Shown here piece after piece: positions 13,039-55,673 of a stretch of DNA of 64,000 bases (its first letter is position 1; each line of letters starts with the position of its first letter). This DNA comes from an uncultured Odoribacter sp. (GTDB taxonomy: Bacteria; Bacteroidota; Bacteroidia; Bacteroidales; Marinifilaceae). The notes under the pieces are model-generated. The model was not told where the DNA came from. It made no database searches and saw nothing but the letters and a program-made list of their open reading frames with translations. Both the position numbers and the translations under genes were made by a program. The stretch is from assembly GCA_910588375.1 (NCBI GenBank), contig CAJUQA010000014.1, forward strand, positions 4,524-68,523, written 5' to 3'.

Positions 13039-13165
13039 ATCCGTAAAATTGTAAGGCGATGCAAGATATACATTTTTTTTAATACAGGATTTATTTTAAA
13101 CAGTGTTTTTATTTTAAAAGTAAAAAACTGTGTAAAATCCCGGCGTTTGCACCTGTTGTCGAGAT

Positions 13166-33650: not shown

Positions 33651-35291
33651 ATGAGGAACGTCCTTCTTTTCGTCACATTATTGTTAGCCGGATGTCTTGC
33701 CCCTCACAGCAAAACAAGAGAAATGCTGACTCGGGCTGAAAGCAGGATGAACGAAAAACCGGACTCTGTCCTGTGTATCTTAAAACACCTCCCTCCCGGC
33801 GATTTGAAAACCGGAGAAGAACAAGCGTTGTTTGCCTTGTTATACAGTCAGGCGCTTGACAAGAACTACATCGACGTAACAAACGATTCATTGATAAACA
33901 TTGCTGTCCGTTATTATAATGACCATCCGGAGCCTTACCGCCTGATGCTTGCCTATTATTATTTATCACGGGTCCAACACAATGCGAAGAATTATGCGGC
34001 GAGCCTCCTGTCCGCCCATAAGGCCCGGAAACACGCAGAGAGCATCGGTAATCATTTCTTTCTCGGAATGATATACCGTAGCATGGCAACTATTTATAAC
34101 CGGATATACAATGCCAATGAAGAAATAAAATATTTCCTCCTCGCACATCAATTTTTTGTGAAAGCACACGCCGACAAGCACGCTAACGTTGCTTTTATTG
34201 ACATGGGGCATGCCTATCACAACAACCATGAATATGAAAAAAGCATCCGTATCGCACAACAATCTTTTGACTCGGCTTTCACGAAAAGGGATACAACCCT
34301 CATGACGGAGAGTCTTCACCTGCTCGGCTGTTCTTATGCCGCACAACAAAATTACCGGGAGGGAAAAGAGGTTATGCTCCGTTTACAAGCACTCTGCCCA
34401 ACCTACCTGTCCGACCAAGACTATAAAAATCTCGCACTTATTTATTTTTCGGAAAATAAGCTGGACAGTGCCACTTTTTATCAAAAACGAATAAAAAGCA
34501 GCCATGCGGCTATTTCGTGGATAGATTATAACCTCCACACACTGCAAGGGAACTATCCGCAAGCTCTCCGTGCACTGGAAATCATAAGCCGTACCCAGGA
34601 CTCCATTATCCGTCAAGCCTTAAACCAAAATATCAGTAGTACACTCGTTCAATATTACAAACAGGAAGAAGAAATGGCCGCTTATAAACTGAAACACGAA
34701 AAGCAACTACGTATCGGAATCAGTGTTTTCGGCATTCTTTTTATCATAGCACTCTACATTTTTTATCATATCCATTTACAAACCAAACAGCGCAAACTTG
34801 AAGATACCATTCTGTTTGCCACGGAATTAAGAGACAAATTGCTCCGACAGGATTCCGAAATGCAGAAAAGGGAGGGTTTTATTGACGAACTGTTAAAACA
34901 AAAATTCACCACCATCGACAAACTATGCTCTACCTACTACGAATGCCAGAACACAGAGCGGGAAGGCAAACGCATCCACACAGAAGTCATCGGTATCATT
35001 TCCAAGTTCAGAGAAGACCCGCACACACAAAAGGAATTGGAAACCTTCCTCGACACCTACAGGGATAATCTGATGAGCACATTCCGCCAAGAGTTTCCCA
35101 AATTAAAAAATTCCGATTACCAACTATTCCTTTACCACGCCCTCGGACTTTCCCAACGCTCTATTTCTATTTTTCTGCAAGAAAAAACGACGGTGATCTA
35201 TAACCGTAAAAACCGCCTTAAAAACAAAATCCAAAACAGTCAGAGCAAGAAAAAAGATTTATTCGTGCAAGTGTTTTCACTAAACCACTAA
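33651..35291 (+). CDS. transmembrane one-component regulator: lipobox signal + extracytoplasmic TPR domain + TM helix + coiled coil + C-terminal LuxR/GerE-like HTH
   Basis: The N-terminus MRNVLLFVTLLLAGC is a lipobox. About 330 aa of TPR-like repeats follow (LLYSQALDKNYID, YYYLSRVQHNAKNY and others). A TM helix IGISVFGILFIIALYIFYHI lies around residue 365-385. The C-terminal SDYQLFLYHALGLSQRSISIFLQEKTTVIYNRKNRLKNKI is HTH-like. Confidence 0.6.
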   Translation: MRNVLLFVTLLLAGCLAPHSKTREMLTRAESRMNEKPDSVLCILKHLPPGDLKTGEEQALFALLYSQALDKNYIDVTNDSLINIAVRYYNDHPEPYRLMLAYYYLSRVQHNAKNYAASLLSAHKARKHAESIGNHFFLGMIYRSMATIYNRIYNANEEIKYFLLAHQFFVKAHADKHANVAFIDMGHAYHNNHEYEKSIRIAQQSFDSAFTKRDTTLMTESLHLLGCSYAAQQNYREGKEVMLRLQALCPTYLSDQDYKNLALIYFSENKLDSATFYQKRIKSSHAAISWIDYNLHTLQGNYPQALRALEIISRTQDSIIRQALNQNISSTLVQYYKQEEEMAAYKLKHEKQLRIGISVFGILFIIALYIFYHIHLQTKQRKLEDTILFATELRDKLLRQDSEMQKREGFIDELLKQKFTTIDKLCSTYYECQNTEREGKRIHTEVIGIISKFREDPHTQKELETFLDTYRDNLMSTFRQEFPKLKNSDYQLFLYHALGLSQRSISIFLQEKTTVIYNRKNRLKNKIQNSQSKKKDLFVQVFSLNH

Positions 35292-36076: not shown

Positions 36077-36319
36077 ATGATGAAGAAAAAAATCATCACT
36101 ATTGCTGCCATTGCAAGCATTGCATTATTAACCGCAGCATATAGCATCTTCTCTACAGAGAAAAACCAGGTTAGCTCACTGATGTTGGAAAATATCGAGG
36201 CATTGGCACAGAGTGAAGAAATTAATCCCTTATGTCCCAATGGATGTATAGACGGATCAGACGGATGCTATTGTTACAGATACTATCAGGAATATAGTGA
36301 ATATCATTGGAAAAATTAA
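36077..36319 (+). CDS. NVEALA-family-like small peptide precursor with Cys/Tyr-rich C-terminus
   Basis: 80 aa. N-terminal signal/anchor KKKIITIAAIASIALLTAAYSIF. Motif LENIEALAQSE (NIEALA at 36191-36208). The C-terminal 28 residues are CPNGCIDGSDGCYCYRYYQEYSEYHWKN, with 4 Cys and 6 Tyr. Confidence 0.6.
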   Translation: MMKKKIITIAAIASIALLTAAYSIFSTEKNQVSSLMLENIEALAQSEEINPLCPNGCIDGSDGCYCYRYYQEYSEYHWKN

Positions 36320-36327: not shown

Positions 36328-36353
36328 ATGTTGCGCCTTAAAAGGCGCAACAT
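36328..36353 (+). terminator. perfect 10-bp hairpin immediately after the peptide gene (attenuator/partial terminator candidate)
   Basis: ATGTTGCGCC-TTAAAA-GGCGCAACAT, 9 nt after the stop codon and 23 nt before the next start (36376). The T-tract is weak (CCGAATTTATAATAATT), so read-through is plausible. Confidence 0.5.
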
Positions 36354-36375: not shown

Positions 36376-37404
36376 ATGAAAAAAAAATTTATATATTTTG
36401 GGGTATTAATTCTCCTCATTGGGGGATGCAGCCGCAATTCGGATAGGGAAAAACATTACAGCAAGTATGGCAAGGTTATTAACATTCAAGAAAAATTGCA
36501 CTCCATTGAAATAAAAAATGTCCTAATTGGTCAATACGGCCACTTATATTTAATTGACAAATATTTAATCATAGGAGATCACATGTCGCCAGATAAACAA
36601 ATTCATCTGTTCGATAAAAACAGTTTCAACTATATTCTTAGCACCGGTTATAAGGGAAAAGGTCCCAACGAAATTACTATTTTAGGCAATATTGCTACTG
36701 ATAAAGTTCATCGAAAATTTTATGTTTCCGATCATGGGAAATTAAAAATATTCAGCTATGATTTAGACAGCCTTTTGGCTAATCCGTTATATCTTCCAAA
36801 TATAAAAATCAGTATGGACAAAAGCCGTTTCCCAGCCGGATATGAATATATAAACGATACTTTGTGCTTTGGATGTATTATAGAACCTATCGGAAATAAC
36901 GACTTCAAACCATGTGTAGGGAAATGGAATATGCTCACCAATGAAGTGCAATTAATGAAATACGAGCACCCTGACGTAAAAAAGAAAAGAACAATTACTG
37001 CCGTTTCCTCAAATTTAGGATTATATGTCGAAGCATATACTCGTCATGACTTAATAACAGTGGGGACGTTTAACGGCGAATTGAGATATAACATTTATGG
37101 TCCCAAGTGGGAAACGAAATTAAGCAAAAATGGTTACTACGGATCTACCAATTTCTGTAAAGATAAAATCATTAGCACTTATTTAGCTGACAACAGAATC
37201 AAAAAAGAACCTAATGGTAAGATAAGAAGTGCTTACCCGACAAAATTTGTTATTTTTGATTTGGAGGGAAACTATCTTCAAACATGGGAAACAGGATATG
37301 AAATAACAAATTTTGTTTATGATGAAGAAAATAATCGCCTCATTATAAGGATAGAGGATGCCGACGTGCAATTTGCTTATTTAAATCTTGACGGGTTATT
37401 ATGA
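36376..37404 (+). CDS. six-bladed beta-propeller lipoprotein, class A (BF3164-family-like), paralog A1
   Basis: I use the start MKKKFIYFGVLILLIGGC (lipobox) at 36376, because the track's upstream extension crosses the hairpin. The GKGPNEIT motif is present. 342 aa. The stop overlaps the next start (ATGA). Confidence 0.65.
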   Translation: MKKKFIYFGVLILLIGGCSRNSDREKHYSKYGKVINIQEKLHSIEIKNVLIGQYGHLYLIDKYLIIGDHMSPDKQIHLFDKNSFNYILSTGYKGKGPNEITILGNIATDKVHRKFYVSDHGKLKIFSYDLDSLLANPLYLPNIKISMDKSRFPAGYEYINDTLCFGCIIEPIGNNDFKPCVGKWNMLTNEVQLMKYEHPDVKKKRTITAVSSNLGLYVEAYTRHDLITVGTFNGELRYNIYGPKWETKLSKNGYYGSTNFCKDKIISTYLADNRIKKEPNGKIRSAYPTKFVIFDLEGNYLQTWETGYEITNFVYDEENNRLIIRIEDADVQFAYLNLDGLL

Positions 37405-38261
37405 TGGTTAGAATTATCACATACTTTTTAGGGATATTTTTACTCTCTGCTTGTCTATCCAAAAACAGAACTCAGATAACAGAACTAATTAAAACGTGGG
37501 ATGGGAAAGAAATTCTTTTTCCTAAGAAAATGAATATGGTACAAGTAGGAGATTCTATCCACAAAACCTTCTCTTTGGAAAATTATAAAATAATTGTCTA
37601 TGTAGATACAAACGGATGTTTCACATGCAAATTGCATTTGATGGAATGGGAGGATTTAATTACTGAGTTAGACTCCGTACCCGCCCTTTTTTATTTTGCC
37701 CCAAGAAGTACAGACTATGTAAAAGATATTTTGAAAGAAAATCTGTTTTATTATCCCGTTTGCATTGATGAAAAAGACAGCCTCAACATATTAAATAATT
37801 TCCCCAAAGACGAACGGTTTCACACGTTTTTATTAGACTGTAATAATCGGATTAAAGCTATCGGAAATCCCATAACCAATCCCAAAATCAAAGAACTTTA
37901 TCTGAAAGTGATTACAGGAGATACGTCGACGAAAAAACAAGTACCCCAAACGACGGTCGAGTATGAAACAACTATATGTGATTTAGGAGAGTTTACGCCC
38001 AAAGAGAAGCGGGAAGCCGTGTTTTCATTAAAAAATACAGGGGCACAACCGCTACTGGTGGCAGATGTGACAACCTCCTGCGGATGCGCAACACCCCGGT
38101 ATGACAAAAAGCCAGTAAAGCCAGGAGAAACCATAAAGATTACTGTGGAAATGAAAATAAAGGAAGAAGGGTATTTCGAAAAGACAATTTCAGTATATTG
38201 CAACACGCAAAATACACCGATTCAATTCAAGGTAAAAGGTAGGGTGGTGGATAAGAAATAG
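37401..38261 (+). CDS. lipoprotein fusing a thioredoxin-like (TlpA/redoxin-type, CxxC) domain to a C-terminal DUF1573 domain, copy 1
   Basis: Lipobox FLLSAC. Redoxin-like YKIIVYVDTNGCFTCKLHLMEW (CFTC at 37617-37628) and HTFLLDCNNRIKAIG. The C-terminal CDLGEF...FSLKNTGAQPLLVADVTTSCGCATPRYDKKPVKPGE is DUF1573-like. Confidence 0.6.
   Translation: MMVRIITYFLGIFLLSACLSKNRTQITELIKTWDGKEILFPKKMNMVQVGDSIHKTFSLENYKIIVYVDTNGCFTCKLHLMEWEDLITELDSVPALFYFAPRSTDYVKDILKENLFYYPVCIDEKDSLNILNNFPKDERFHTFLLDCNNRIKAIGNPITNPKIKELYLKVITGDTSTKKQVPQTTVEYETTICDLGEFTPKEKREAVFSLKNTGAQPLLVADVTTSCGCATPRYDKKPVKPGETIKITVEMKIKEEGYFEKTISVYCNTQNTPIQFKVKGRVVDKK
37623..38248 (+). repeat. 626-bp block identical to 39566-40191
   Basis: Row-by-row reading shows no differences between the flanking mismatches at 37616/37622 and 38249. 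The antisense track ORFs 37898-38206 and 39841-40149 are identical. Confidence 0.8.
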
Positions 38262-38318: not shown

Positions 38319-39347
38319 ATGAAAATAAAATTTGCCTATCTGTTGTTATTGATTTCCGTCTTTGGGGGATGCAACCAGCATTCCGAAACGGAAAAATATT
38401 ATAAAGAGTATGATAAAGTAATTAATGTTCATGATAGATTGCTGCCGATTAAAATAGAGGACATTTTTATTGGAGAAATTATTCAACTAAATTTATTAGA
38501 TAATTATTTGATTATCGGTGATTACCAATCACCCGATAAACTGATTCATTTATTCGATAAAAACAATTTTAAATATATTTGCAGTACTGGCAATAAAGGA
38601 AAAGGACCGGGAGAAATAACAAATTTAGGACATATCGCCCCGGATAAAATTCATCGAAAATTATACGTTTCAGACAATGGACAAGCAAAGCTATTTTGTT
38701 TTGATGTAGACAGCCTTTTAGCCGATCCCCTCTATCTCCCATATGTAAAATTAAACCTATCTAAAAGTGTCGTGCCAATAAATTACATATATGTAAATGA
38801 TACCCTATGTATCGGGTGTTGTTGGGAAATAATCGGGAATAACAATTTTAAACCCTATGTTGGAAAATGGAATATGCTAAGCAATGAAGTAAAACTAATA
38901 AAATATGAACATCCCGATGTAAAAAGAAAAAGGGTTTCCACTGCTGTTTCCCCAAAATTCGGATTATATATCGAAGCTCACGGGTGCTATGACTTAATAA
39001 CTATCGGCTCTCTTTCCGGGGAATTAAGATGTAATATATACGGACCCAATTGGGAAACTCAATTAAGTAAGAAATCATATTATGGCCGATGTAAATTTTG
39101 TAAAGATAAAATATTTGTAACTTATTTAGCCAAAGACCTATTTACAAAAGAAGCAAATGGGGAAATAAGAGGCAATTATACAACTCAATTTATTATTTTT
39201 GATTTAGAAGGCAATTATCTTCAAACGTTAGAAACCGATTACAGATTAAAAGATTTTATTTATGATGAAGAAAATAATCGCCTTATTATGGGGATAGAAG
39301 ATGCCGACGTGCAGTTTGCTTATTTAAATCTTGACGGGTTATTATGA
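38319..39347 (+). CDS. six-bladed beta-propeller lipoprotein, class A, paralog A2
   Basis: MKIKFAYLLLLISVFGGC lipobox and the GKGPGEIT motif. 342 aa, co-linear with A1 without gaps. ATGA overlap with the next gene. Confidence 0.65.
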   Translation: MKIKFAYLLLLISVFGGCNQHSETEKYYKEYDKVINVHDRLLPIKIEDIFIGEIIQLNLLDNYLIIGDYQSPDKLIHLFDKNNFKYICSTGNKGKGPGEITNLGHIAPDKIHRKLYVSDNGQAKLFCFDVDSLLADPLYLPYVKLNLSKSVVPINYIYVNDTLCIGCCWEIIGNNNFKPYVGKWNMLSNEVKLIKYEHPDVKRKRVSTAVSPKFGLYIEAHGCYDLITIGSLSGELRCNIYGPNWETQLSKKSYYGRCKFCKDKIFVTYLAKDLFTKEANGEIRGNYTTQFIIFDLEGNYLQTLETDYRLKDFIYDEENNRLIMGIEDADVQFAYLNLDGLL

Positions 39348-40204
39348 TGGTTAGAATTATCGCATTCTTTTTGAGTTTATTACTACTCTCTACCTGCCAG
39401 CACAAGGACAAATACAGGATAACAGAATTGATTAAGGCATGGGACGGGAAAGAGATTCTTTTTCCCAAGGAAATGAATATGGTACAAGTAGGAGATTCTG
39501 TCTACACAACCTTGTCCTTAGAAAATTATAAAATAATTGTCTATGTAGATACAAACGGCTGTTTTACATGCAAATTGCATTTGATGGAATGGGAGGATTT
39601 AATTACTGAGTTAGACTCCGTACCCGCCCTTTTTTATTTTGCCCCAAGAAGTACAGACTATGTAAAAGATATTTTGAAAGAAAATCTGTTTTATTATCCC
39701 GTTTGCATTGATGAAAAAGACAGCCTCAACATATTAAATAATTTCCCCAAAGACGAACGGTTTCACACGTTTTTATTAGACTGTAATAATCGGATTAAAG
39801 CTATCGGAAATCCCATAACCAATCCCAAAATCAAAGAACTTTATCTGAAAGTGATTACAGGAGATACGTCGACGAAAAAACAAGTACCCCAAACGACGGT
39901 CGAGTATGAAACAACTATATGTGATTTAGGAGAGTTTACGCCCAAAGAGAAGCGGGAAGCCGTGTTTTCATTAAAAAATACAGGGGCACAACCGCTACTG
40001 GTGGCAGATGTGACAACCTCCTGCGGATGCGCAACACCCCGGTATGACAAAAAGCCAGTAAAGCCAGGAGAAACCATAAAGATTACTGTGGAAATGAAAA
40101 TAAAGGAAGAAGGGTATTTCGAAAAGACAATTTCAGTATATTGCAACACGCAAAATACACCGATTCAATTCAAGGTAAAAGGTAGGGTGGTAGACAAGAA
40201 TTAA
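39344..40204 (+). CDS. thioredoxin-like (CxxC) + DUF1573 lipoprotein, copy 2
   Basis: Lipobox LLLSTC and CFTC at 39560-39571. From residue ~75 to 283 the protein is identical to copy 1. Confidence 0.6.
   Translation: MMVRIIAFFLSLLLLSTCQHKDKYRITELIKAWDGKEILFPKEMNMVQVGDSVYTTLSLENYKIIVYVDTNGCFTCKLHLMEWEDLITELDSVPALFYFAPRSTDYVKDILKENLFYYPVCIDEKDSLNILNNFPKDERFHTFLLDCNNRIKAIGNPITNPKIKELYLKVITGDTSTKKQVPQTTVEYETTICDLGEFTPKEKREAVFSLKNTGAQPLLVADVTTSCGCATPRYDKKPVKPGETIKITVEMKIKEEGYFEKTISVYCNTQNTPIQFKVKGRVVDKN
39566..40191 (+). repeat. 626-bp block identical to 37623-38248
   Basis: See the partner block. Confidence 0.8.
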
Positions 40205-40287
40205 AATTTTAAATGTAAATCATATAAATGAAAAAGAGAGGCATCATAGAGGGGGATAATCCTGTAATCCGATATCTATACCTTTTT

Positions 40288-41454
40288 ATGAAAAATATCG
40301 TATTCATTTTCTGTCTGTGTTTCTATGCTTGTCATTCAACACATATTCCCGAAGCCAAAAATAAAGTGGATTATAAACATCTGCCTCATTTTTCCTCACA
40401 AAAATTACTTCCGCAAAAATTCATTTTAGATTCCATAGTGATAGCCTTGCCGGAAGAAGACATTCTGTCTTCCATGAACGGCCAGTTCTTTTGCAACCAC
40501 GATACGATTTATTTTGCAGACAAACAATTGGCATCATTACTACTGTTTTCCCCCGAAGGGGAATTTATCGGCTATCGCCTGCGCCGAGGCAATGGTCCCA
40601 ATGAAATCAAAGGATTGTTTTCTATTGTACCCACACCTGAAAAACAATACATCATTTTAGACGAAAGCTGGCGCATTTATACATTCAACAACAGCTGGGA
40701 AAAAATCAACCAATTCAATATAGACTGGAGTTCCAAACGCACCTCCGTTGAAAAATATTCGCAAATAGACCCCAACTACCACGACATCTATGAAATACAA
40801 TATTCAAACAACTGTCTCCGTCCTTTTTCGGAAAAATATCTTGTCGTTCCTATTGTTACGGAGCATATAAAGTATAATGCTTATGAGAAGGCTTCCCATT
40901 TTTACGGAAATGCCTATACGTTGGGGTTGCTTGACCTTTCTTCCGGCAAGATAAGCAGCATGCTGTGCCAGCATTCCCCGATTTATCAACGCTATAAATA
41001 TATTCCTAATTTTCAGAACATATTGTATGACGTTTACCAAGACACGCTGGTGTTTTCATTTGAAGCCGACCCGCTTATTTACAAAATGAATCTTCTGGAT
41101 GGCAAAGCTTTTTCATTCGGCATGCCCGGTAAGGATATGAATACCAATTACCGAGAAACGAATAATTTTGAGGATGCGGACAAGAATTACCACAGAGACA
41201 GAAAGAAGTACGGTTATTATCAAGCGTTGAAGTATATCCCGCAAACGGGGATATTGTTCCGGAGTTATTCAAAGGGCGGTAAGGCGGGAGGAAATTCCCT
41301 GCAGGTGTACCGAGGCAATACGCTTGTCGGAGAGTACGGGAATTTGCCTGACAGGTTTCAAGTATACGGCTATATGGATTCGTGGTATTATGCCTGTGCC
41401 GCTCCCGATTTCGAGAATGAAAACCTTATTATTTACAAGTTTAAATTTGAATAA
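40288..41454 (+). CDS. six-bladed beta-propeller lipoprotein, class B (TolB-like/DUF5128-like), paralog B1
   Basis: I use the start MKNIVFIFCLCFYAC (lipobox) at 40288; the track start at 40228 is the alternative. Motif RRGNGPNEIKGLFSI. Confidence 0.55.
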   Translation: MKNIVFIFCLCFYACHSTHIPEAKNKVDYKHLPHFSSQKLLPQKFILDSIVIALPEEDILSSMNGQFFCNHDTIYFADKQLASLLLFSPEGEFIGYRLRRGNGPNEIKGLFSIVPTPEKQYIILDESWRIYTFNNSWEKINQFNIDWSSKRTSVEKYSQIDPNYHDIYEIQYSNNCLRPFSEKYLVVPIVTEHIKYNAYEKASHFYGNAYTLGLLDLSSGKISSMLCQHSPIYQRYKYIPNFQNILYDVYQDTLVFSFEADPLIYKMNLLDGKAFSFGMPGKDMNTNYRETNNFEDADKNYHRDRKKYGYYQALKYIPQTGILFRSYSKGGKAGGNSLQVYRGNTLVGEYGNLPDRFQVYGYMDSWYYACAAPDFENENLIIYKFKFE

Positions 41455-42782: not shown

Positions 42783-43811
42783 ATGAATATAAAATTCGCC
42801 TATCTGTTGTTATTAATTTCCGTATTTGGAGGATGTAGCCAGCATTCCGAAACGGAAAAATATTACAATGAATACAACAAAGTGATTAATATTCGCGACA
42901 GGTTGCAAGCGATTGAGATAAAGGATGCTTTTATAGGTGATTTTGCACAATTATACTTAATGGACAATTATTTAATCATAGGGGATCACCTGTCGCCAGA
43001 TAAACAAATTCATCTGTTCGATAAAAACAGTTTCAAATACATTCTTAGCACAGGTTATAAGGGGAAAGGTCCCCATGAAATAACTCGTTTAGGATATATT
43101 GCCACTGATGAAGTCCATCGAAAATTTTATGTTTCCGATCATGGGAAATTAAAAATATTCAGCTATGATTTGGACAGTCTTTTGGCTGATCCATTATATC
43201 TTCCAAGTATAAAAATCTGTATGAATAATAGCCGGTTACCCAATCGATATAAATATGTAAATGACACATTATGTATCGGAAGTATTATAGAGCCTATCGG
43301 AAATAACGACTTCAAGCCATTTGTGGGGAAATGGAATATGCAGACCAATGAAACAAAGTTGATGAAATACGAACATCCCGATGTTAAGAAAAAACGGATA
43401 TTTACCAATGTTTCGCCGGAATTAGATTTGTATGTAGAAGCGCATATACGTCATGACTTAATAACTGTCGGAACCTTGGATGGTGAGTTAAAATACAATA
43501 TATACGGACCTCATTGGGAAACGAAATTAAGTAAAAACGATTACTACGGCCCTATTATTTTCTGTAAAGATAAAATTATTGCGACCTATCTGGCTGAATA
43601 TGGATTTGTTAAAGAAGACAATGGGAGAATTAGAGGTAAATCGCCAAGTAAATTTGTTATTTTTAATTTGGAGGGGGACTATCTTCAAACATGGGAAACA
43701 GGATATGAAATAACAAATTTTGTTTATGATGAAGAGAACAATCGCCTTATTATAGGCTTGGAAGATGCAGACGTGCAATTTGTTTGTTTAAATCTGGAGG
43801 GATTGTTATGA
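42783..43811 (+). CDS. six-bladed beta-propeller lipoprotein, class A, paralog A3
   Basis: I use the start MNIKFAYLLLLISVFGGC at 42783. The GKGPHEIT motif is present. 342 aa, closest to A1. ATGA overlap with the next gene. Confidence 0.65.
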   Translation: MNIKFAYLLLLISVFGGCSQHSETEKYYNEYNKVINIRDRLQAIEIKDAFIGDFAQLYLMDNYLIIGDHLSPDKQIHLFDKNSFKYILSTGYKGKGPHEITRLGYIATDEVHRKFYVSDHGKLKIFSYDLDSLLADPLYLPSIKICMNNSRLPNRYKYVNDTLCIGSIIEPIGNNDFKPFVGKWNMQTNETKLMKYEHPDVKKKRIFTNVSPELDLYVEAHIRHDLITVGTLDGELKYNIYGPHWETKLSKNDYYGPIIFCKDKIIATYLAEYGFVKEDNGRIRGKSPSKFVIFNLEGDYLQTWETGYEITNFVYDEENNRLIIGLEDADVQFVCLNLEGLL

Positions 43812-44818
43812 TAAAAAAGATATTATTTTCCTTATTAGTATTACAAACAGTATTGGGGTGCTCGTCCAATACTACAACAGAAAAACATTTATCCCATCGA
43901 AATAATATCGTGAATGTTCATGACAAGGTTATTCCAATACATATAGATGAACCGTATATCAGTTCAAACTGCAAACCTTACGTAATGGACAAATATTTAT
44001 TTATCGTAGACTTTCAATGTTTAGATAGATTCATCCATATTTTTGACAAAAATACCTTTCAATACCTTTCCAGTATTGCCCCCAAAGGACGTGGACCATA
44101 CGAGTTTATAAACATCGGGGATATTTGCCCCGATGAGAAAAACCGTAAATTTTATGTGTTCGACTTCGGAAAATACAAATTACACAGCTATGATTTAGAC
44201 AGTGTCATCCGCGATCCTTCCTATCGGTTTCATGATAAAGCCAACTTCAAAGAACCTTTATATCCTCACAGATGTTGCTACGTCAACGATACTCTCAACC
44301 TGGTTGCCATTTCGGATGTCGAAAATAACTACAGAAACGTAAATGAGATCGCAGGACTTTGGAATATGCGCACGGGAGAATTGCATATCGGTTATGAAAA
44401 TCCGTACGTAAAGAAAAAACGCTTTCAATTCACAGGCTCGGCAGAGGAAGGCGTCTATGTCAAATGTTATTCCCGCTATGACCTTATGACAATATGTAAC
44501 TTAGACGGAACACTGAAATGCAATGTTTATGGTCCAGAATGGAGCAAGGAAATAACCAATACCTGTCACTACAACATGGACGTTCATATTTGCAAGGATA
44601 AAATACTCGCTCTCTATTCCGGAGCAGATCATCGTTCCAAAGAGCATTATCCTTCAAAAATCCATATTTTTGACACAGCAGGAAATTACATAAAAACATT
44701 GGAAACCGGATTTCACATTCTATATTTTTGGTATGACAAGGAAAAACACCGGATTATTTTCTGCACCTATTATGACGAAATGCTATTCGGATACCTGAAT
44801 TTGGAAGGAATTATATAA
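43808..44818 (+). CDS. six-bladed beta-propeller lipoprotein, divergent class A, paralog A4
   Basis: I use the start MIKKILFSLLVLQTVLGC at 43808. The GRGPYEFI motif is present. The C-terminal half is the donor type for the chimeric paralog A5. Confidence 0.6.
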   Translation: MIKKILFSLLVLQTVLGCSSNTTTEKHLSHRNNIVNVHDKVIPIHIDEPYISSNCKPYVMDKYLFIVDFQCLDRFIHIFDKNTFQYLSSIAPKGRGPYEFINIGDICPDEKNRKFYVFDFGKYKLHSYDLDSVIRDPSYRFHDKANFKEPLYPHRCCYVNDTLNLVAISDVENNYRNVNEIAGLWNMRTGELHIGYENPYVKKKRFQFTGSAEEGVYVKCYSRYDLMTICNLDGTLKCNVYGPEWSKEITNTCHYNMDVHICKDKILALYSGADHRSKEHYPSKIHIFDTAGNYIKTLETGFHILYFWYDKEKHRIIFCTYYDEMLFGYLNLEGII

Positions 44819-44963: not shown

Positions 44964-44984
44964 AAATAAATCATTACCTTGCGA
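44964..44984 (+). promoter_or_regulatory. conserved upstream motif AAATAAATCATTACCTTGCGA, copy C
   Basis: Identical 21-mer, 18 nt upstream of the ATG at 45003. Confidence 0.45.
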
Positions 44985-45002
44985 TTACGAAAATATCCAA
45001 CT

Positions 45003-46103
45003 ATGAAATACATAAATTACTATCTTTTAATTGTGGCCTGTTTTTGGACAAGCTGTAAAACAAATTATAAAGAAAACAATACAAGTATCCCATTTAACGC
45101 TCTGCAAGAATATAGACTGGAAGATAGCAAGTTCGATATTTTAACTCCTGTTAAATATATCGTACTACATTCGGGTACCGAGAATATGGAAATTGCCTAT
45201 ACCGATAAAATCGAGACGTTTGATAATAAAATTTATATTGCAGATAAAACGTCTTCCAAATTAGTTGTATTCGATACAACAGGAAAAGCCATTGGATGTG
45301 TGGGACATAAAGGACATGGTCCGGGCGAATATATCAATATTACTGATTTTTCTATTGACAAGGAGGGTAATATCTATATATTGGATTATAATACTTCTTC
45401 CCTGTTAAGATACAACAAAGAGAATGATTTTATCGGCTCTCGAAAATTGCCTTTTAATGCTGAAACATTTCAATGTATCTCCGATAATAAGTTTGCTTTC
45501 AGTTTAACTGCCAATAATTCCGGGAAATATCCGGCTGATCATATTATTATTACAAACAATGATTTAGAGAAAGAAAAAACCATTGCAAGATACGAGAATA
45601 GTACAGATGATAATTTTCATTTATCCAGTTTCGGATTTACCAAAACAAAAAACGGAATATTTTACCACAAGCCGATTGACGACCACGTCTATTTGCTTGA
45701 TGATTCCGGCAACCTTAAAAATGTATTTCTCTTTGACTTTGGAAATAAACTTGTCCCCGATTCTTATAGGACGAATATTGAAGATAAATTAGAGGCTTTT
45801 ACGAACTATACTACATTGACGTTCTTTACTCTCATTTATGATAATTATATTTACGGGTCGTTATTTGACGAAGGACATTACAAACAATTTGTTTTGGATA
45901 GAAATACCCATAAAATCTATAAAAAAACAGATGAAAGTATTGATAGGTACGGACATTGGTTCGGCACCTGCGGAAGTTATCTTGTCAGTGTCTTTCCTCC
46001 TATTTTTGAGAAAAACAATTATCCATCGGATTTTCCCAATGATTTGAAAAAAGCATTGGCAGAAGAGAAAATTGTGCTGTGTTTTTATTCCATTAAACCA
46101 TAA
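45003..46103 (+). CDS. six-bladed beta-propeller lipoprotein, class B, paralog B2
   Basis: I use the start MKYINYYLLIVACFWTSC at 45003. Motif HKGHGPGEYINITDFSI. Confidence 0.55.
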   Translation: MKYINYYLLIVACFWTSCKTNYKENNTSIPFNALQEYRLEDSKFDILTPVKYIVLHSGTENMEIAYTDKIETFDNKIYIADKTSSKLVVFDTTGKAIGCVGHKGHGPGEYINITDFSIDKEGNIYILDYNTSSLLRYNKENDFIGSRKLPFNAETFQCISDNKFAFSLTANNSGKYPADHIIITNNDLEKEKTIARYENSTDDNFHLSSFGFTKTKNGIFYHKPIDDHVYLLDDSGNLKNVFLFDFGNKLVPDSYRTNIEDKLEAFTNYTTLTFFTLIYDNYIYGSLFDEGHYKQFVLDRNTHKIYKKTDESIDRYGHWFGTCGSYLVSVFPPIFEKNNYPSDFPNDLKKALAEEKIVLCFYSIKP

Positions 46104-46114: not shown

Positions 46115-47122
46115 ATGAATATAAAATTTGCCTATCTGTTGTTATTAATCCCTGTCTTTGGGGGATGCAAGCAGCATTTCGAAACGGAAAAACATTATAA
46201 AGGGTATGATAACGTCATTAATGTCCATGACAGATTGCAGCCGATTGAGATAAAAGAGGTGTTTTTTAGTGATTTTGCCAATCTATACCTCATGGATAAG
46301 TATTTAATCATAAGTGATTATCATTCTCCGGATAGACACATTCACTTATTTGATAAAAACAGTTTCAAGTACATTTGCAGTACAGGCAATAAAGGAAATG
46401 GACCGGGAGAGATAACGAATTTGGGAGATATTGCTACTGACGAATCTCATGGAAAATTCTACGTTTCCGATCATGGGAAATTAAAAATATTCAGCTATGA
46501 TTTGGACAGCCTTTTGGCTGATCCGCTATATCTTCCAAGTATAAAGGTCTGTATGGATAATAGCCTTTTCCCTTCCGAATATGAATATATAAACGATACC
46601 TTGTGCTTCGGACGCATGATTAAACCTATCGGAAATAATGACTTCAACCCATTTGTGGGGAAATGGAATATGCTGACCAATGAATTTGAATTGATGAAGT
46701 ATGAACATCCCGACGTGAAGAAAAAACGCTTTCAGTTCGCCGTTTCTACCGAGGAAGGCATTTATGTTGAATGTTATTCCCGCTATGACCTTATGATAAT
46801 ATGCAATTTGGACGGCACACTGAAATGCAATGTTTACGGTCCGAAATGGAGCAAGGAGATAACCAATATCTGCCACTACAATATGGAGGTTCATATTTGC
46901 AAGGATAAAATATTCGCTCTCTATTCCGGAGCAGATCATCGTTCCGAAGACTATTACCCTTCAAAAATCCATATTTTCGACACTGCGGGGAATTACATAA
47001 AAACACTGGAAACAGGATATCACATTCTAAGTTTCCAGTATGATAAGGAAAAACACCGGATTATTCTCTGCACCAACGGCGAAATGCAATTCGGATACCT
47101 GGATTTGGAAGGAATTATATAA
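46115..47122 (+). CDS. six-bladed beta-propeller lipoprotein, class A chimera (A1/A3-type N-half, A4-type C-half), paralog A5
   Basis: MNIKFAYLLLLIPVFGGC lipobox and the GNGPGEIT motif. Residues 1-~200 align best with A1/A3. From HPDVKKKRFQF onward the protein aligns closely with A4. Confidence 0.65.
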   Translation: MNIKFAYLLLLIPVFGGCKQHFETEKHYKGYDNVINVHDRLQPIEIKEVFFSDFANLYLMDKYLIISDYHSPDRHIHLFDKNSFKYICSTGNKGNGPGEITNLGDIATDESHGKFYVSDHGKLKIFSYDLDSLLADPLYLPSIKVCMDNSLFPSEYEYINDTLCFGRMIKPIGNNDFNPFVGKWNMLTNEFELMKYEHPDVKKKRFQFAVSTEEGIYVECYSRYDLMIICNLDGTLKCNVYGPKWSKEITNICHYNMEVHICKDKIFALYSGADHRSEDYYPSKIHIFDTAGNYIKTLETGYHILSFQYDKEKHRIILCTNGEMQFGYLDLEGII

Positions 47123-47134: not shown

Positions 47135-48259
47135 ATGAGAATAACAATACTACTATCTCTAATATTTGCGTTAGGAGGATGTACCTCTCAAATAACATTT
47201 GATTCTTCACATGTTGATACGATAATAAAGGTCGGAGAGGCATTGAAAGCACCTGTCAGCGATTTTCAATTTACTATTGACAGTAGTTGGCTCATAGCTT
47301 TAAAAACACCGGATGAAAAAATACAAGGAAGTATTACCAAAATAAAAATACATGATCATCTTATTTATACTTTAGATGAGTTACAATCCAAAAATCTGAA
47401 TGTATATGACTTTAACGGAAATTATGTCAGAAGTATCGGCAATATTGGCAAAGGACCGCAAGAATTACTCAATATATCGGATTTCTGTATCTATCAAGAA
47501 CAAATTTTTCTGATTGACAACATTACGGAACGCATCCAAATATTTTCAACAACATCAGGTAAATTTTTAAAAACCGTACCCCTTTCTTTCCGACCTCACG
47601 AAATGGAGGTTATCAACGACAACCAATATCTGTTTGAATTATCCGAATATAACCAAGGGCATGAGGACAGATTTCAAAGATATAACCTTGTCGTCACAGA
47701 CAGTTTATTTCAGCCTCAAACATTCTTTCTCTCCCATCCCAAAACAAAAGACAATTCGGTGCAGTATATCAGTATTAATAATCCTTTCAATCGCGTTAAA
47801 GATTCCATTTATTACTTTTCCACTATCACCGATGCCGTTTATCAATTTTCAATTGATTCACTCACACAATGCGTGTATTTTGATTTCGGTCGTCAATATT
47901 CTATCCCTACCGACCTTAAATATGACGACAATAAATTCACGAAATATGCCCAAAGACACGATTATGCCTATTTCGTTGAAAGCCCCATCTTATTAGAGAA
48001 TTATATCGCCGGAATACTACGAGTTAATAAAAAGAAGTTTTTCGTTTTAACCGACAGGCAAGAATGCTTCGTGAAAGAAATATCATTAAATGATTATAAT
48101 GCTTTAGACCCTGTTTTTTGCATAGGAGCTTATGGGAATACGTTAATTTCTACCATAGACGATGTCGGTTTACAACAATTTAAAGCCAAAAATCTCTTTT
48201 CGGAGCAAATTACAAATCATGAGAATTACAATTTTATCCTATTCTCCAAACTGAAATAA
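47135..48259 (+). CDS. six-bladed beta-propeller lipoprotein, class B, paralog B3
   Basis: MRITILLSLIFALGGC lipobox and motif NIGKGPQELLNISDFCI. 374 aa. Confidence 0.55.
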   Translation: MRITILLSLIFALGGCTSQITFDSSHVDTIIKVGEALKAPVSDFQFTIDSSWLIALKTPDEKIQGSITKIKIHDHLIYTLDELQSKNLNVYDFNGNYVRSIGNIGKGPQELLNISDFCIYQEQIFLIDNITERIQIFSTTSGKFLKTVPLSFRPHEMEVINDNQYLFELSEYNQGHEDRFQRYNLVVTDSLFQPQTFFLSHPKTKDNSVQYISINNPFNRVKDSIYYFSTITDAVYQFSIDSLTQCVYFDFGRQYSIPTDLKYDDNKFTKYAQRHDYAYFVESPILLENYIAGILRVNKKKFFVLTDRQECFVKEISLNDYNALDPVFCIGAYGNTLISTIDDVGLQQFKAKNLFSEQITNHENYNFILFSKLK

Positions 48260-48289: not shown

Positions 48290-49135
48290 ATGAAACGCAA
48301 AGTATCGGAAACGGTGGTGAATATCCTGTTTTGGATGTGTATCCTGTTTGTGGGATGGGTGGTGTTACGGGTAATGGGATACGCTTCTTTCCGGATTCCG
48401 AGTGATTCAATGGCACCGGCATTGGTAACGGGCGACCGTATTTGGGTGGCGAAACCTATATTGGGGGCTCGCATTCTCAATCCGTTTGCTTCTATCAATG
48501 ACAAAGAGGTGAAGATACGGCGGTTGCCGGGATGGAGAAAAGTGGAACACAATGACATATTGGTATTTAACTTTCCCTACCGCTCGGCATGGGACACGGT
48601 GAGTATGGATTTGAGTACCTACTATGTGAAAAGATGTATCGGGGTGCCGGGTGATACGCTGGTCATCCGGGAAGGCTATTACCTCATTAACGGACAAAAG
48701 GGGAAGGTCGGGAATCAAGCCGCCCAACAGAAACTATCCCAGAAAAGCAGGGAGGATTTTGAACCGGAGGTGTACAATACGTTTCCCTATCATCCTGCCT
48801 ATCCCTGGAATATTCACACGTTCGGTCCGCTCATCATTCCCGGAAAAGGAATCGAGGTTCCGCTCACCCCACACAATCTGTGCCTATATAAACGCTGGAT
48901 TGAATGGGAATCGGGAAAGTCCGTAAAGAGTCAGAATGAAAATGTGTATATCGGAGAAGAAAAAGCCGGAGCATATCGTTTTCGGAAAAACTATTATTTC
49001 GTGGGAGGCGACCGGGTGGAGGATTCCAAAGACTCCCGATATTGGGGATTTCTACCGGAAGAGTGTATCGTAGGAAAAGCGTGGATTATCCGAAGTTCGG
49101 AAACGGAAGGCAGAGCGGGCAAATTGATAAAATAG
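48290..49135 (+). CDS. signal peptidase I (S26 family), short form
   Basis: N-terminal TM helix, catalytic Ser box IPSDSMAPAL, Lys box YYVKRCIGVPGDTL, and GGDRVEDSKDSRYWGFLPE. 281 aa. The next gene starts on the base after the stop codon. Confidence 0.8.
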   Translation: MKRKVSETVVNILFWMCILFVGWVVLRVMGYASFRIPSDSMAPALVTGDRIWVAKPILGARILNPFASINDKEVKIRRLPGWRKVEHNDILVFNFPYRSAWDTVSMDLSTYYVKRCIGVPGDTLVIREGYYLINGQKGKVGNQAAQQKLSQKSREDFEPEVYNTFPYHPAYPWNIHTFGPLIIPGKGIEVPLTPHNLCLYKRWIEWESGKSVKSQNENVYIGEEKAGAYRFRKNYYFVGGDRVEDSKDSRYWGFLPEECIVGKAWIIRSSETEGRAGKLIK

Positions 49136-50926
49136 ATGAAACGCAACAGGAAGGATACAGGAAAACTATTCGGTTATGCCGCCACCGCCTTGTGTGCGGC
49201 AGGTCTCCTATGGCCCGTTATAGTCAGTGACGCACAGAAAACCGGCGCCGTGAATCCTGCACGTCTGGAAATCGCAGCAATAACCATATCCGCATCTTTG
49301 TGCCTTCTCTTTATTCTGGCACTTTGCCGTGACATCCGTTTCCGTTTCACTTCCACCGACGGTTGGTTTGCCGCCTTTACCGGATATTGGTTTTTCCGCT
49401 ATTTCACCACCGGCAGCCATTGTCCCACCCATGCCCTTCTATTGGTCTTGTTAACAGGCGTCTATTTCGCCATCCGCCTATTGGTATCCTCAGACCGGAC
49501 ATCACGTTCCATTGTATTTTTGTGCCTCTGTCTTATAGGCATTACAGAATCGGTGTGGGGGTTGGCACAGCTATACGGATTCCTGCCTTCTTACCACGCC
49601 CTGTACCGCTTCACCGGTTCGCTTTTCAATCCGGGGCCCTATTGCGGCATGTTAGCAATTCTGCTCCCGCTGGCATTGTATTTAGGATTACGCAAACCCT
49701 CTCATCCGCTCATTGCTCATACCGGTCTAATTTGTTCCACCGCGGTCATAATCCTGCTCCCGGCAGGCATGAGCCGGAGCGCATGGATTGCAGCCCTTGC
49801 CGGATGTGGCTGGGTATTGTGGAAACATGGTTCCTTGGCTTCTGCAATCCGGAATTTCTTCCGGCTCAAAAGACGCTATTTTCTTCCGGTGGCATTCCTC
49901 TGCCTGTTATTGCTTTGCGGCATCGGCACCGGTATGTACGCCTTAAAAAAAGACTCGGCCGACGGTCGCCTGCTGATGTGGAAAGTATCGGGAATGGCTG
50001 TCGAAGAAGCCCCTTGGACAGGGCAAGGCCCGGGCAGTTTTGCAGGCGCATACGGCAAAGCACAAGCCAGCTATTTTACCAATCAGCCGCATTCCTCTCA
50101 GGAAGAATATGTGGCAGGCTGTCCGGAATACGGTTTTAACGAATATCTGCAAATCACAACGGAACTCGGTATTATCGGTCTGCTGCTCTTTGCCGGAACG
50201 GTGTTGTCCGCTTTCCGTCAGGCATGCGAGCAACACCAGGCAGGTATCGCAGGCAGCCTCATCGCGTTTGCTGTCTTCGCTTTCTTTTCTTACCCTTTCA
50301 GCGTGTTGCCCCTCTCCCTTTTGTTCGTCGTCTTCATCGCTCTTTGCCCTCCCCCGGCGGAGAGCCATTACCCACCAATAATCCCCCGGACGATTATTCT
50401 ATTGATTACCGGTGCATGCCTGTACGCCGGAAACGGATTGTTGAAAAAAGCGGCACATCTCCGTACCTGGCAAGAAGAAAAAAGATACTTCGACATGGAA
50501 ATCTACGAAGGTACCGTAGAAGAATACCGCCGACTCTATCCCGCATTAAAGGAATTTGCCCCGTTCCTGTTTGAGTATGGACAATGCCTTGCAAAAACAG
50601 GACAATACGAGGAGAGTATAACCGTATTGTCGGAAGGTGCACTCCGGAGTGCCGACCCGATGTTCTATAACATCATCGGCAGGAACGAGCAGGCACTCGG
50701 CCATTACGAAGCCGCCGAAAAGGCATTTCTCCGGGCCTACCGGACGGTGCCCCACCGACTCTATCCCCTTTACCTATTGGCGGAACTTTATATATCGACC
50801 GGACAATACGAAAAAGCCGCCGACGTTATCCGGAAAGCCCTGGCACAAAAGCCCAAAATCATGTCCCCCGCCATTGAGGAGATGCAACATAAATTGAAAA
50901 AACTATATGAACAGATTCCGTCTTAA
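49136..50926 (+). CDS. O-antigen-ligase-like (Wzy_C) polytopic membrane protein with C-terminal TPR domain
   Basis: About 12 TM helices. Wzy_C-like DGRLLMWKVSGMAVEEAPWTGQGPGSF and GFNEYLQITTELGIIGLLLF. The C-terminal ~190 aa contain TPR-like repeats (GQYEESI, GHYEAAEKAFLRAY, GQYEKAADVIRKAL). Confidence 0.7.
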   Translation: MKRNRKDTGKLFGYAATALCAAGLLWPVIVSDAQKTGAVNPARLEIAAITISASLCLLFILALCRDIRFRFTSTDGWFAAFTGYWFFRYFTTGSHCPTHALLLVLLTGVYFAIRLLVSSDRTSRSIVFLCLCLIGITESVWGLAQLYGFLPSYHALYRFTGSLFNPGPYCGMLAILLPLALYLGLRKPSHPLIAHTGLICSTAVIILLPAGMSRSAWIAALAGCGWVLWKHGSLASAIRNFFRLKRRYFLPVAFLCLLLLCGIGTGMYALKKDSADGRLLMWKVSGMAVEEAPWTGQGPGSFAGAYGKAQASYFTNQPHSSQEEYVAGCPEYGFNEYLQITTELGIIGLLLFAGTVLSAFRQACEQHQAGIAGSLIAFAVFAFFSYPFSVLPLSLLFVVFIALCPPPAESHYPPIIPRTIILLITGACLYAGNGLLKKAAHLRTWQEEKRYFDMEIYEGTVEEYRRLYPALKEFAPFLFEYGQCLAKTGQYEESITVLSEGALRSADPMFYNIIGRNEQALGHYEAAEKAFLRAYRTVPHRLYPLYLLAELYISTGQYEKAADVIRKALAQKPKIMSPAIEEMQHKLKKLYEQIPS

Positions 50927-54545: not shown

Positions 54546-54575
54546 TCCCCAACACACTATAAAATATACTGAAAT

Positions 54576-55661
54576 ATGAGACATATGCGCACTCTGGCCT
54601 ATTTACTGCTTGCCGTTTCCCTCACCGCCTGCGGTTCTAAAGCCACCAAGGAAGAAGAAAACGAAGTAGGGCGGAAAAAATACGAAATCGAGAAGAATCC
54701 GGTTGACACAATCATCCTGCGGAAACAGAATTTCAACAGCCAGTTGCTGAGTAACGGCAAACTGAGGGCACTGAACAAAAGTTCCCTGAAATTTGCCAAT
54801 ACGGGCATCGTCACCCAACTTCCTGTAAAAAACGGTACACCGGTAGAACAGGGAGAAGTAATTGCCGTGCTGGACACCCGTGATGCCATGCTCAAACTCG
54901 AACAAGCCCGCCATCAAATAGAAAAAGCCCGGATTGAACTGGAAGACAAACTCCTGGGGTACGGCTACAAAATCGAAGACTCCCTACAAATTCCCGCCGG
55001 CACAATGCGCATTGCCCGCATCCACAGCGGATATAACGATGCGGAAGCCAACTTGAAAAGCGCACAAATGAACTTAGACAACTGCACACTCAAAGCCCCC
55101 GTCAGCGGACGGATTGCCAATCTCGCGACAAAAGTATTCGAATATCCCTCCGGAGAGGAGTTTTGCCAGGTCATCAACGATAAAACCTTTGAAGTGGAAT
55201 TTGCCGTACTGGAAACAGAGCTGAGCAGCCTGAAGAACGGTCAAAGGGTTTTAGTATCCACTTTCACCGAACCGGAAAAAAGCTATACGGGACAGGTGAC
55301 GGAAATCAATCCGACAGTCAATGACAAAGGACAAGTGATGGTACGTGCACAACTCCCGAATCCTGGACATCTGATTGACGGCATGAACGTGAAAGTGCAC
55401 ATTGAAAACATCATTCCCGACAAATTTGTTGTACCGAAGAGTGCAGTACTCATCCGGGACAACCAGGAAGTGCTTTTCCGTGTCGATAAGGACAACAAAG
55501 CCATGTGGACATACGTGCATGTATTGATGGCCAACAGCAACAGTTATGTAGTGGTGCCGAACTCCGACAAAGGAGCCGAACTGAACGAAGGGGACATTGT
55601 CATCATTTCGGGCAATCTGAACCTGGCACACGGCTCGGGCGTCATGGTGAAACAAGAGTAA
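54576..55661 (+). CDS. RND efflux periplasmic adaptor (membrane fusion protein), lipoprotein
   Basis: Lipobox LLAVSLTAC. Lipoyl/hairpin motifs GTPVEQGEVIAVLD and LKAPVSGRIANL. Confidence 0.8.
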   Translation: MRHMRTLAYLLLAVSLTACGSKATKEEENEVGRKKYEIEKNPVDTIILRKQNFNSQLLSNGKLRALNKSSLKFANTGIVTQLPVKNGTPVEQGEVIAVLDTRDAMLKLEQARHQIEKARIELEDKLLGYGYKIEDSLQIPAGTMRIARIHSGYNDAEANLKSAQMNLDNCTLKAPVSGRIANLATKVFEYPSGEEFCQVINDKTFEVEFAVLETELSSLKNGQRVLVSTFTEPEKSYTGQVTEINPTVNDKGQVMVRAQLPNPGHLIDGMNVKVHIENIIPDKFVVPKSAVLIRDNQEVLFRVDKDNKAMWTYVHVLMANSNSYVVVPNSDKGAELNEGDIVIISGNLNLAHGSGVMVKQE

Positions 55662-55673
55662 CAAGCAAGAACT

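Follow-up and report, generated by a model that had tools for sequence, protein, structure and literature searches.

A small NVEALA-family precursor gene in an uncultured Odoribacter species is part of one cassette of a widespread, probable peptide-partner system of Bacteroidales

The 64,000-nucleotide stretch of DNA analysed here (contig CAJUQA010000014.1, positions 4,524 to 68,523, from assembly GCA_910588375.1 of an uncultured Odoribacter species; hereafter 'the window') carries a gene for an 80-amino-acid (80-aa) protein of the NVEALA family, and this gene is part of one cassette of a widespread, unstudied Bacteroidales system that is probably of the peptide-partner kind. By sequence comparison, the members of this family have a conserved leader that is joined at a sharp boundary to a variable core peptide, and the class of the core co-varies with the subfamily of a beta-propeller lipoprotein encoded directly downstream. 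On the + strand, the locus begins with the precursor gene, a hairpin, a propeller gene, a gene for a lipoprotein with thioredoxin-like and DUF1573 domains (Trx-DUF1573), a second propeller gene and a second Trx-DUF1573 gene. It continues with genes for a 408-aa and a 401-aa protein, five propellers, a signal peptidase of the S26 family, a Wzy_C/TPR protein, a 677-aa lipoprotein and TolC-, HlyD- and RND-type proteins (Table 1).

Table 1. Features of the NVEALA locus, with positions counted from the first nucleotide of the window
Feature	Position	Strand	Basis or remark
546-aa protein: lipoprotein signal, TPR, one internal transmembrane segment, helix-turn-helix (HTH)-like C-terminus (read by eye)	33651..35291	+	
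NVEALA-family pre-pro-peptide gene	36077..36319	+	PF14055, 37.8 bits; same protein, less the first Met, encoded on 111 contigs
Signal-like region: MKKK n-region, hydrophobic IITIAAIASIALL, small-residue TAA	36080..36139	+	Sequence; AlphaFold2 (AF2) helix 3-26; family profile
Pro-region ending in the handle L-x-L-x-N-I-E-A-L-A-x-x-E	36140..36217	+	Position profile; AF2 helix 34-46; conservation stops here
NIEALA motif; Glu47 (both within the pro-region)	36191-36208; 36215-36217	+	
Core peptide, 'CPNGC' class: (E)INPxCPNGC-x6-C[YFW]C-aromatic-rich tail ending W-x-x; four Cys	36218..36316	+	Class alignment; AF2
Perfect 11-bp stem-loop just past the precursor stop, before the propeller gene	36328..36353	+	Folding against shuffles
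Six-bladed NHL-type beta-propeller lipoprotein, CPNGC-linked subfamily, proposed core-specific partner	36376..37404	+	PF17170; AF2; Foldseek; best matches
Lipoprotein with thioredoxin-like CxxC (CFTC) domain and DUF1573 Ig-like domain with SCGC	37401..38261	+	
Second CPNGC-subfamily propeller lipoprotein, without adjacent precursor	38319..39347	+	64% identical to the 36376 protein
Second Trx-DUF1573 lipoprotein, near-identical duplicate	39344..40204	+	
408-aa lipoprotein, distant propeller-like	40228..41454	+	360 aa align with the L019 neighbour at 23% identity; Pfam search empty
Third CPNGC-subfamily propeller lipoprotein, without adjacent precursor	42783..43811	+	
Fourth CPNGC-subfamily propeller	43805..44818	+	87% identical to the partner of CPNGC peptide P0004
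DUF5128 propeller of a subfamily tied elsewhere to 'CGGPK' cores; no such precursor here	44979..46103	+	
Fifth CPNGC-subfamily propeller	46115..47122	+	
DUF5128 propeller lipoprotein, divergent type	47135..48259	+	
S26 type-I signal peptidase paralogue, Ser/Lys catalytic motifs intact	48290..49135	+	
Polytopic Wzy_C (O-antigen-ligase-like) membrane protein with C-terminal TPR; conserved companion	49136..50926	+	
677-aa lipoprotein: transglutaminase-like Cys/His core and F5/8-type-C domain	50907..52940	+	
TolC-like, HlyD-like and two RND pump genes	53016..61945	+	Same neighbours in the sister species

The precursor open reading frame (ORF) is exactly as a sequence-only reading of this DNA had described it, with a signal or anchor segment, a linker containing an NVEALA motif and a Cys-rich tail of 33 residues. 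Its translation begins with MMKKK and a hydrophobic stretch, runs on to ...LMLENIEALAQSE and closes with EINPLCPNGCIDGSDGCYCYRYYQEYSEYHWKN; the linker ahead of this tail reads ...SSLMLENIEALAQSE. The tail holds four Cys residues, and six Tyr residues lie inside residues 65-76. The protein matches the Pfam family PF14055 (NVEALA) above its cutoff of 27 bits (E 1.6e-9) over residues 4-69, which correspond to profile positions 1-57 of 62. It has the other marks of the family as well, namely NIEALA at residues 39-44 of 80, an N-terminal hydrophobic segment, a size of 60-100 aa and a Bacteroidales host. The protein is encoded on public contigs in a form identical except for the first Met, and the leader has diverged from that of a sister species mostly by synonymous changes (differences at 22-25 of 141 nucleotides alter just 5 of 46 residues; 82-84% DNA and 89% amino acid identity). 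Given the Pfam match, the 111 contigs and this pattern of change, we rule out a chance ORF and take the precursor to be a coding sequence under purifying selection. Its true start is probably the ATG at 36080, giving 79 aa, since almost all relatives begin with MKKK. No second ORF with an NVEALA motif occurs in the window.

In the family profile, the N-terminal MKKK is followed by about 20 hydrophobic residues, and a possible ordinary signal-peptidase site can be placed at TAA/Y22 (residue 21/22). The AF2 model of the precursor comprises helix 3-26, helix 34-46 (the NVEALA helix) and a small beta sheet in the core, with a predicted local distance difference test (pLDDT) score of 85-90 across residues 50-80; a Foldseek search with this model returned no fold match in the PDB. 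The stem-loop beyond the stop codon has a predicted folding energy of -17.8 kcal/mol (z -5.1), and none of 200 shuffled sequences folds equally well. A simple terminator scan did not call it as a canonical terminator, and it is possibly an attenuator or a transcript stabiliser.

Relatives were collected by a profile search of 1.8 billion representative proteins, which gave 159 at E < 1e-3, and by a degenerate DNA-pattern scan of species-representative genomes, which gave at least 99 loci with 158 confirmed family ORFs. When 303 unique sequences were anchored on the motif, the relative entropy per position was 3.8 bits at N, 2.7 at V/I, 4.1 at E, 3.2 at A, 3.4 at L, 2.9 at A and 2.5 at the Glu at +8, whereupon it fell at once to at most 0.7 bits and, from +12 onwards, to at most 0.4 bits. 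The true handle of the family therefore reads LxLxN[VI]EALAxxE. NIEALA had earlier been regarded as a one-residue variant of the motif, a description that does not survive the profile, in which the second position is occupied by V in 50% of relatives and by I in 44%.

The suggestion that the motif marks a boundary is borne out by the family alignment, in which strong conservation through N[VI]EALAxxE collapses immediately afterwards, and the DNA agrees. Among the 15 closest database relatives, residues 1-47 are nearly invariant through NIEALAQSE, beyond which they have neither sequence nor length in common. Comparisons across species and among paralogues give DNA identities of 82-95% in the leader and 23-38% in the core, and when the window is aligned by blastn with the sister species' syntenic locus, the match ends at 36218, the first core codon. 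Family genes that adjoin each other in one genome likewise share nearly the same leader but differ in the core (for example at loci L027, L044, L097, L101 and L113). As judged from these comparisons, the motif is a true conservation boundary in both protein and DNA. The family thus has the conserved leader, variable core and defined junction that characterise precursors of ribosomally synthesised peptides that are modified after translation (RiPPs), as well as the conserved N-terminal module, joined sharply by recombination to variable C-terminal modules, that characterises polymorphic toxin-immunity systems.

The cores sort into discrete, recurrent classes by their Cys framework. The window core belongs to the largest of these, CPNGC-x6-CxC, with 47 of 304 unique sequences and the consensus (I)NPxCPNGC-x6-7-C[YFW]C[YNH]-G-[WY]-[YH]-P-...-E-[AY]-x-W. 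Its hosts include Odoribacter-like, Parabacteroides, Proteiniphilum, Dysgonomonadaceae, Tannerellaceae and other genomes. The tail is therefore not simply hypervariable, as had been supposed, and instead represents a conserved and widely distributed core class that also occurs behind very diverged leaders. C53, C57, C64 and C66 are invariant in the class alignment and P54 and G56 nearly so, and 80% of all cores have an even number of Cys residues (2, 4 or 6), both of which uphold the proposal that four Cys could form two disulfides. The Tyr- and Glu-rich segment, which had been likened to sulfation or cross-linking substrates, fares less well: the median number of Tyr residues in the class is 3, a count of 6 occurs only in the window species, the EYSEY sequence is not conserved, and no sulfotransferase or known RiPP enzyme lies in the window or recurs across the 99 loci. 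Given that these features are peculiar to the window species, we rejected Tyr sulfation or cross-linking as a family feature.

A separate class of cores with two Cys residues, C-x-G-x-G-S-x-D-C-P...V-K-V...Y-S-L, was seen in L006, L027, L032, L039, L044, L076, L113 and other loci. The gene next to these precursors is usually a Trx-DUF1573 gene or another NVEALA gene, not a propeller gene, and the class may have a different role, for example that of an inducer or helper peptide.

Companion genes were counted by clustering the ORFs of the 99 loci, which were taken as pieces of 8 kb each, many of them incomplete, such that the counts given below for the S26, Wzy_C and transglutaminase-like genes are lower bounds. 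This unbiased clustering places a propeller gene in 88 of the 99 loci and either a propeller or a Trx-DUF1573 gene in 92, and a propeller detectable by phmmer lies no more than 300 bp downstream of 64 of the 158 precursors. The propeller that follows the window precursor is modelled by AF2 with a pLDDT of 91.9, and its best Foldseek matches are NHL domains (Brat, Thin and TRIM2). Foldseek returned only generic NHL and WD40 propellers and no specific enzyme, and a single-sequence search against the PDB gave nothing useful. Its best matches elsewhere are propellers that adjoin CPNGC-class precursors, and it is 70% identical to its counterpart in Odoribacter lunatus.

This correspondence extends across the family. 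When propellers encoded within 300 bp downstream of a precursor were compared by normalised bit scores, the mean was 0.35 for pairs linked to the same core class and 0.04 for pairs linked to different classes. The nine CPNGC-linked propellers come from different genera, and each finds its best match in another member of this group. Furthermore, one genome (L024) holds two core classes, each with its own propeller type, which argues that the co-variation does not merely follow species phylogeny. Across loci, the Trx-DUF1573 proteins are uniformly similar (normalised score 0.34), whereas the propellers score 0.05, with 68% of pairs below 0.05; the conserved leader thus goes with conserved accessory genes, and the variable core with a variable partner. 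That core class and propeller subfamily co-vary is the main new finding. A comparison of 63 diverse NVEALA-linked propellers shows conservation of the lipobox Cys and of a single GxGPxE NHL signature only, with no catalytic constellation, and for this reason we think that the propeller is a binding scaffold rather than an enzyme.

The window has a single precursor and at least seven propellers without an adjacent one. The propeller at 43805 is 87% identical to the one that accompanies another CPNGC peptide, P0004, for which this genome has no gene, and the 408-aa lipoprotein resembles the partner of another core class in O. lunatus. A co-varying gene directly downstream and arrays of partner genes that lack an effector are both features of toxin-immunity systems, and they would be consistent with a protective function for the propellers. 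We also observed that the propeller at 46115 has an N-terminal half like those of the proteins at 36376, 38319 and 42783 and a C-terminal half like that of the protein at 43805 (57-62% identity each), and it is apparently a recombinant of the two paralogue types.

Linkage to redox, peptidase, Wzy_C/TPR and transglutaminase-like genes is looser. Trx-DUF1573 genes are present in 45-47 of the 99 loci, and their products conserve both redox motifs (CxxC in 34 of 34 homologues and [ST]C[GD]C in 29 of 34), which supports disulfide formation in the core; we propose that the protein at 37401 is a disulfide oxidoreductase or isomerase. The two copies in the window are near-identical, down to identical antisense ORFs, and the three copies of the sister species hardly differ over their C-terminal two-thirds, a pattern suggestive of gene conversion between cassettes. 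In one assembly of the window species, both genes are called as fragments of 209 and 36 aa (L125:11322-12182 and 13265-14125), which may reflect a frameshift, masking or an assembly artefact.

The S26 paralogue shares its Ser, Lys and GDxxxxSxDSRYWG motifs with E. coli LepB. It lies inside NVEALA loci of several genera with varying gene order (11-13 of 99 loci), and is a candidate for the leader peptidase acting at A-L-A. Wzy_C genes are found in about 7-8 loci, and relatives of the 677-aa lipoprotein in 21-23. In that family, C248 and H281 are invariant; the transglutaminase core was recognised by Pfam scans of members (12 of 15 match PF01841) and the F5/8-C-like domain by the family profile, although a single-sequence search of the 677-aa protein against the PDB gave nothing useful. 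We consider this lipoprotein a candidate protease or cross-linker. The TolC, HlyD and RND genes are a possible exporter whose linkage is weaker, with each cluster found in 5 of the 99 loci.

The sister species, which is about 80% identical in DNA, has two or three cassettes of precursor, propeller and Trx-DUF1573 genes at the corresponding chromosomal site, followed by the same S26, Wzy_C/TPR and 677-aa genes. The locus is fixed within the window's own species and has about 73% DNA identity to that of O. lunatus. Upstream, the 546-aa protein matches the NCBIfam 'BT3442 family' far below its cutoff, is conserved in this position only in Odoribacter-like loci, and from its apparent domains is a possible membrane-spanning (one-component) regulator of the locus. 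Two other secreted proteins are likewise conserved only in Odoribacter-like loci, one of 127 aa at 35513-35896 with a weak DUF3244-like match (E 0.035) and the 401-aa protein at 41457-42662, which has no family match. Elsewhere, recurrent regulators include ToxR-like membrane winged-helix proteins (15 of 99 loci), histidine kinases (9) and OmpR-type response regulators (7), and such clusters stand beside NVEALA cassettes in other genera (for example L113:2977-3999, L052:1440-2864 and L034:1083-1763). The remainder of the window consists of housekeeping genes and an unrelated capsular or exopolysaccharide locus at 1-13100 (EpsG, GT2 and GT4 glycosyltransferases, epimerases, Wzz, Poly_export/SLBB and a NusG-like regulator).

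Pfam and NCBIfam searches of the 64 kb turned up none of the enzyme families known from RiPP pathways (sulfotransferases, radical SAM, YcaO, lanthipeptide enzymes and others), and none of them recurs among the 99 related loci. The only candidates found for acting on the precursor belong to redox and proteolytic families. A role in anti-phage defence was also considered and set aside, as no PADLOC model was matched by 10 proteins of the locus.

We believe that the locus is probably a peptide-partner system of either the toxin-immunity or the signal-receptor kind. The N-terminal Sec-type signal would carry the pre-pro-peptide across the inner membrane, with a pro-region of about 26 residues that ends in an amphipathic helix bearing the LxLxN[VI]EALAxxE handle and is followed by the 33-residue core. 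In the periplasm, the four Cys residues of the core would form two disulfides, with the adjacent Trx(CxxC)-DUF1573(CGC) lipoprotein as the probable oxidant. Cleavage might then free the core at or just past the handle, either by the S26 peptidase of the locus, using A-L-A as an AxA site, or by the transglutaminase-like Cys/His lipoprotein. In such a scheme the leader would interact with the conserved machinery and the core with the variable NHL propeller encoded directly downstream, so that the mature peptide would be bound specifically by its cognate, core-class-specific propeller.

As to function, we favour, with slightly less than even confidence, a secreted polymorphic interbacterial effector, bacteriocin-like, for which the propellers, both the cognate one and those without a precursor, would serve as immunity proteins. 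This preference is based on the sharp junction, the co-varying gene downstream and the array of propellers without precursors, a pattern of junction, downstream partner and orphan immunity arrays that is established for polymorphic toxin systems (PMC3482391). Cleavage at the handle would be consistent with the residues at +3, +4 and +5, which fit the -3/-1 (AxA) rule (A98/L96/A92 at the last three motif positions), and with the near absence of Pro at P1' (1 of 303 sequences against a background of 4.8%).

Several observations weigh against this proposal. The depletion of Pro runs from +6 to +9 and hence is not specific to P1', and the ALA lies about 20 residues beyond the hydrophobic segment, which is far for a classical signal peptidase. 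The cores mostly carry a slight negative charge (median net charge -1, window core -2), which is not what typical membrane-active bacteriocins show. Adjacent genes can also co-vary when a cassette is inherited as a unit, without direct binding, and the S26, Wzy_C and transglutaminase-like genes were found in few of the 8-kb pieces (8-23 of 99, again a lower bound). Finally, the regulators that recur nearby fit signalling as well as regulated toxin production, and our literature search gave no published support of any kind.

A first alternative is a signalling function, in which the processed peptide would be a secreted, pherotype-like cue and the propellers class-specific receptors or binding proteins that feed membrane regulators, with the propellers that lack precursors letting a cell sense the peptides of its neighbours. 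The evidence of architecture and co-variation applies equally here, ToxR-like proteins, histidine kinases and response regulators are repeatedly encoded next to the cassettes (in 15, 9 and 7 loci, respectively), a protein with lipoprotein, TPR, transmembrane and HTH-like parts is encoded directly upstream in the window, and anionic, non-amphipathic cores suit ligands more than pore-formers. We nevertheless judge this alternative unlikely, given that known peptide-signalling systems show nothing like the dozens of unrelated core classes or the multi-copy arrays of single genomes, that most loci have no regulators, and that the link from propeller to regulator is only putative. It is less probable still that the precursor stays uncleaved as an inner-membrane-anchored subunit, whose Cys-rich domain would form a stable complex with the propeller as an envelope-spanning or structural pair and whose NVEALA segment would be a docking or assembly helix. 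A hydrophobic segment of about 20 residues modelled within one long helix (3-26) would suit a signal anchor, any obligate complex could produce the co-variation with propellers, and cleavage itself rests on inference. However, with one precursor for at least seven propellers most propellers would have no subunit, a dedicated S26 peptidase is linked to the loci, and a sharp module junction together with homogenisation of leaders within a genome is typical of processed precursors.

The reading that we find hardest to sustain, and consider quite improbable, is that of a classical RiPP precursor whose core is modified by the products of neighbouring genes, through Tyr sulfation, cross-links or otherwise, with the propeller as the enzyme. 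The leader/core logic does hold, the window core is unusually rich in Tyr, the transglutaminase-like and Wzy_C proteins could add modifications, and some six-bladed NHL-type propellers are indeed enzymes (peptidyl-hydroxyglycine lyase, for example). Yet the absence of known RiPP enzyme families from the window and from the recurrent genes of the 99 loci, and the lack of conservation of Tyr-richness and EYSEY within the class, speak against it. Moreover, RiPP enzymes normally follow the leader and are tolerant of differences in the core, whereas the propeller follows the core and lacks conserved catalytic residues. We also rejected a class II bacteriocin of the double-glycine type, as there is no conserved GG at the junction and no C39/ABC gene in the locus, with a Sec-type hydrophobic segment found instead.

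The favoured effector-immunity reading can be compared with several known systems. Sec-dependent class II bacteriocins and polymorphic toxin-immunity systems (PMC3482391) share with the NVEALA loci a conserved export or processing module, a variable effector, a sharp junction, a co-varying gene directly downstream and arrays of partner genes without effectors. They differ in that the effectors here are tiny disulfide-rich peptides of putative toxicity rather than enzymatic domains, in that the putative immunity proteins are NHL-propeller lipoproteins of about 340 aa, and in that the context here includes no GG leader, C39/ABC transporter, type V, VI or VII secretion system or Rhs element.

The E. 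coli heat-stable enterotoxins STa and STb are likewise made as pre-pro-peptides of 70-80 aa with a Sec signal, a pro-region and a Cys-rich mature C-terminus, and they resemble the window precursor in their dependence on, or proximity to, a periplasmic thiol oxidoreductase; in the window, genes for a TolC-type exporter are also close by. Unlike the NVEALA precursors, with which they share no sequence similarity, they are host-directed and borne on plasmids or transposons, and they have no known partner gene, NVEALA handle or interchangeable cores. Conotoxin precursors also join a conserved signal and pro-region to diverse disulfide-rich peptides that are grouped by Cys framework, but these are eukaryotic venom peptides without a known partner gene and with different processing enzymes. 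The Bacillus SipW-TasA/TapA system offers a precedent for an S26 paralogue in the same locus as its presumed substrates, although the substrate relation is putative here and the site lies some 20 residues beyond the hydrophobic core. Gut Bacteroidales also secrete antagonistic peptides and proteins such as bacteroidetocins, BSAPs and BfUbb (PMC11467351), some of them with a disulfide; bacteroidetocins have a double-glycine leader, and none of the three is known to have an NVEALA leader, a propeller partner or the set of Trx-DUF1573, S26, Wzy_C and transglutaminase genes.

To our knowledge, the Pfam entry for PF14055 records the conserved motif only and no function. Our literature search found no paper that mentions NVEALA, PF14055 (as a peptide family) or DUF5128, nothing relevant on BF3164, PF17170, PF15869 or DUF4934, and no paper that links DUF1573 to such peptides. 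A paper on RiPP mining in Bacteroidales does not mention the genes of NVEALA loci, and a search of the broader bacteriocin and RiPP literature was also empty. Relative to the literature searched, the modular build of leader and core, the sorting of cores into classes and their cognate propellers are new.

The confirmed loci lie almost entirely in Bacteroidales genera, commonly with several copies per genome. Genes of the system were also seen on contigs labelled as Firmicutes or other phyla (L033, from a metagenome-assembled genome labelled Clostridiaceae, and L023, L028, L065 and L081), and one cluster member is named 'Oscillibacter sp.'; such contigs are probably mis-binned Bacteroidales DNA. 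A more ambitious proposal, which we regard as doubtful though worth stating, is that the family forms a conotoxin-like combinatorial library of Sec-exported, disulfide-rich mini-peptides across the Bacteroidales, in which each Cys-framework class would be paired with its own propeller, as immunity protein or receptor, and all would share a maturation set of Trx-DUF1573, S26 acting at A-L-A, Wzy_C/TPR and the transglutaminase-like lipoprotein.

Gut Bacteroidales are dominant human symbionts for which only a handful of secreted antagonistic or signalling molecules are known. If our favoured interpretation is true, they would possess many small and stable disulfide-rich peptides, each supplied with a specific binding partner, with consequences for how strains compete, for colonisation resistance and for the engineering of peptides. 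Roles would also follow for several abundant domains of unknown function, namely NVEALA, the DUF5128/TolB-like propellers and DUF1573. Should the combinatorial library prove real, the NVEALA family would represent a major, so far unrecognised system through which peptides mediate antagonism or communication among gut microbes.

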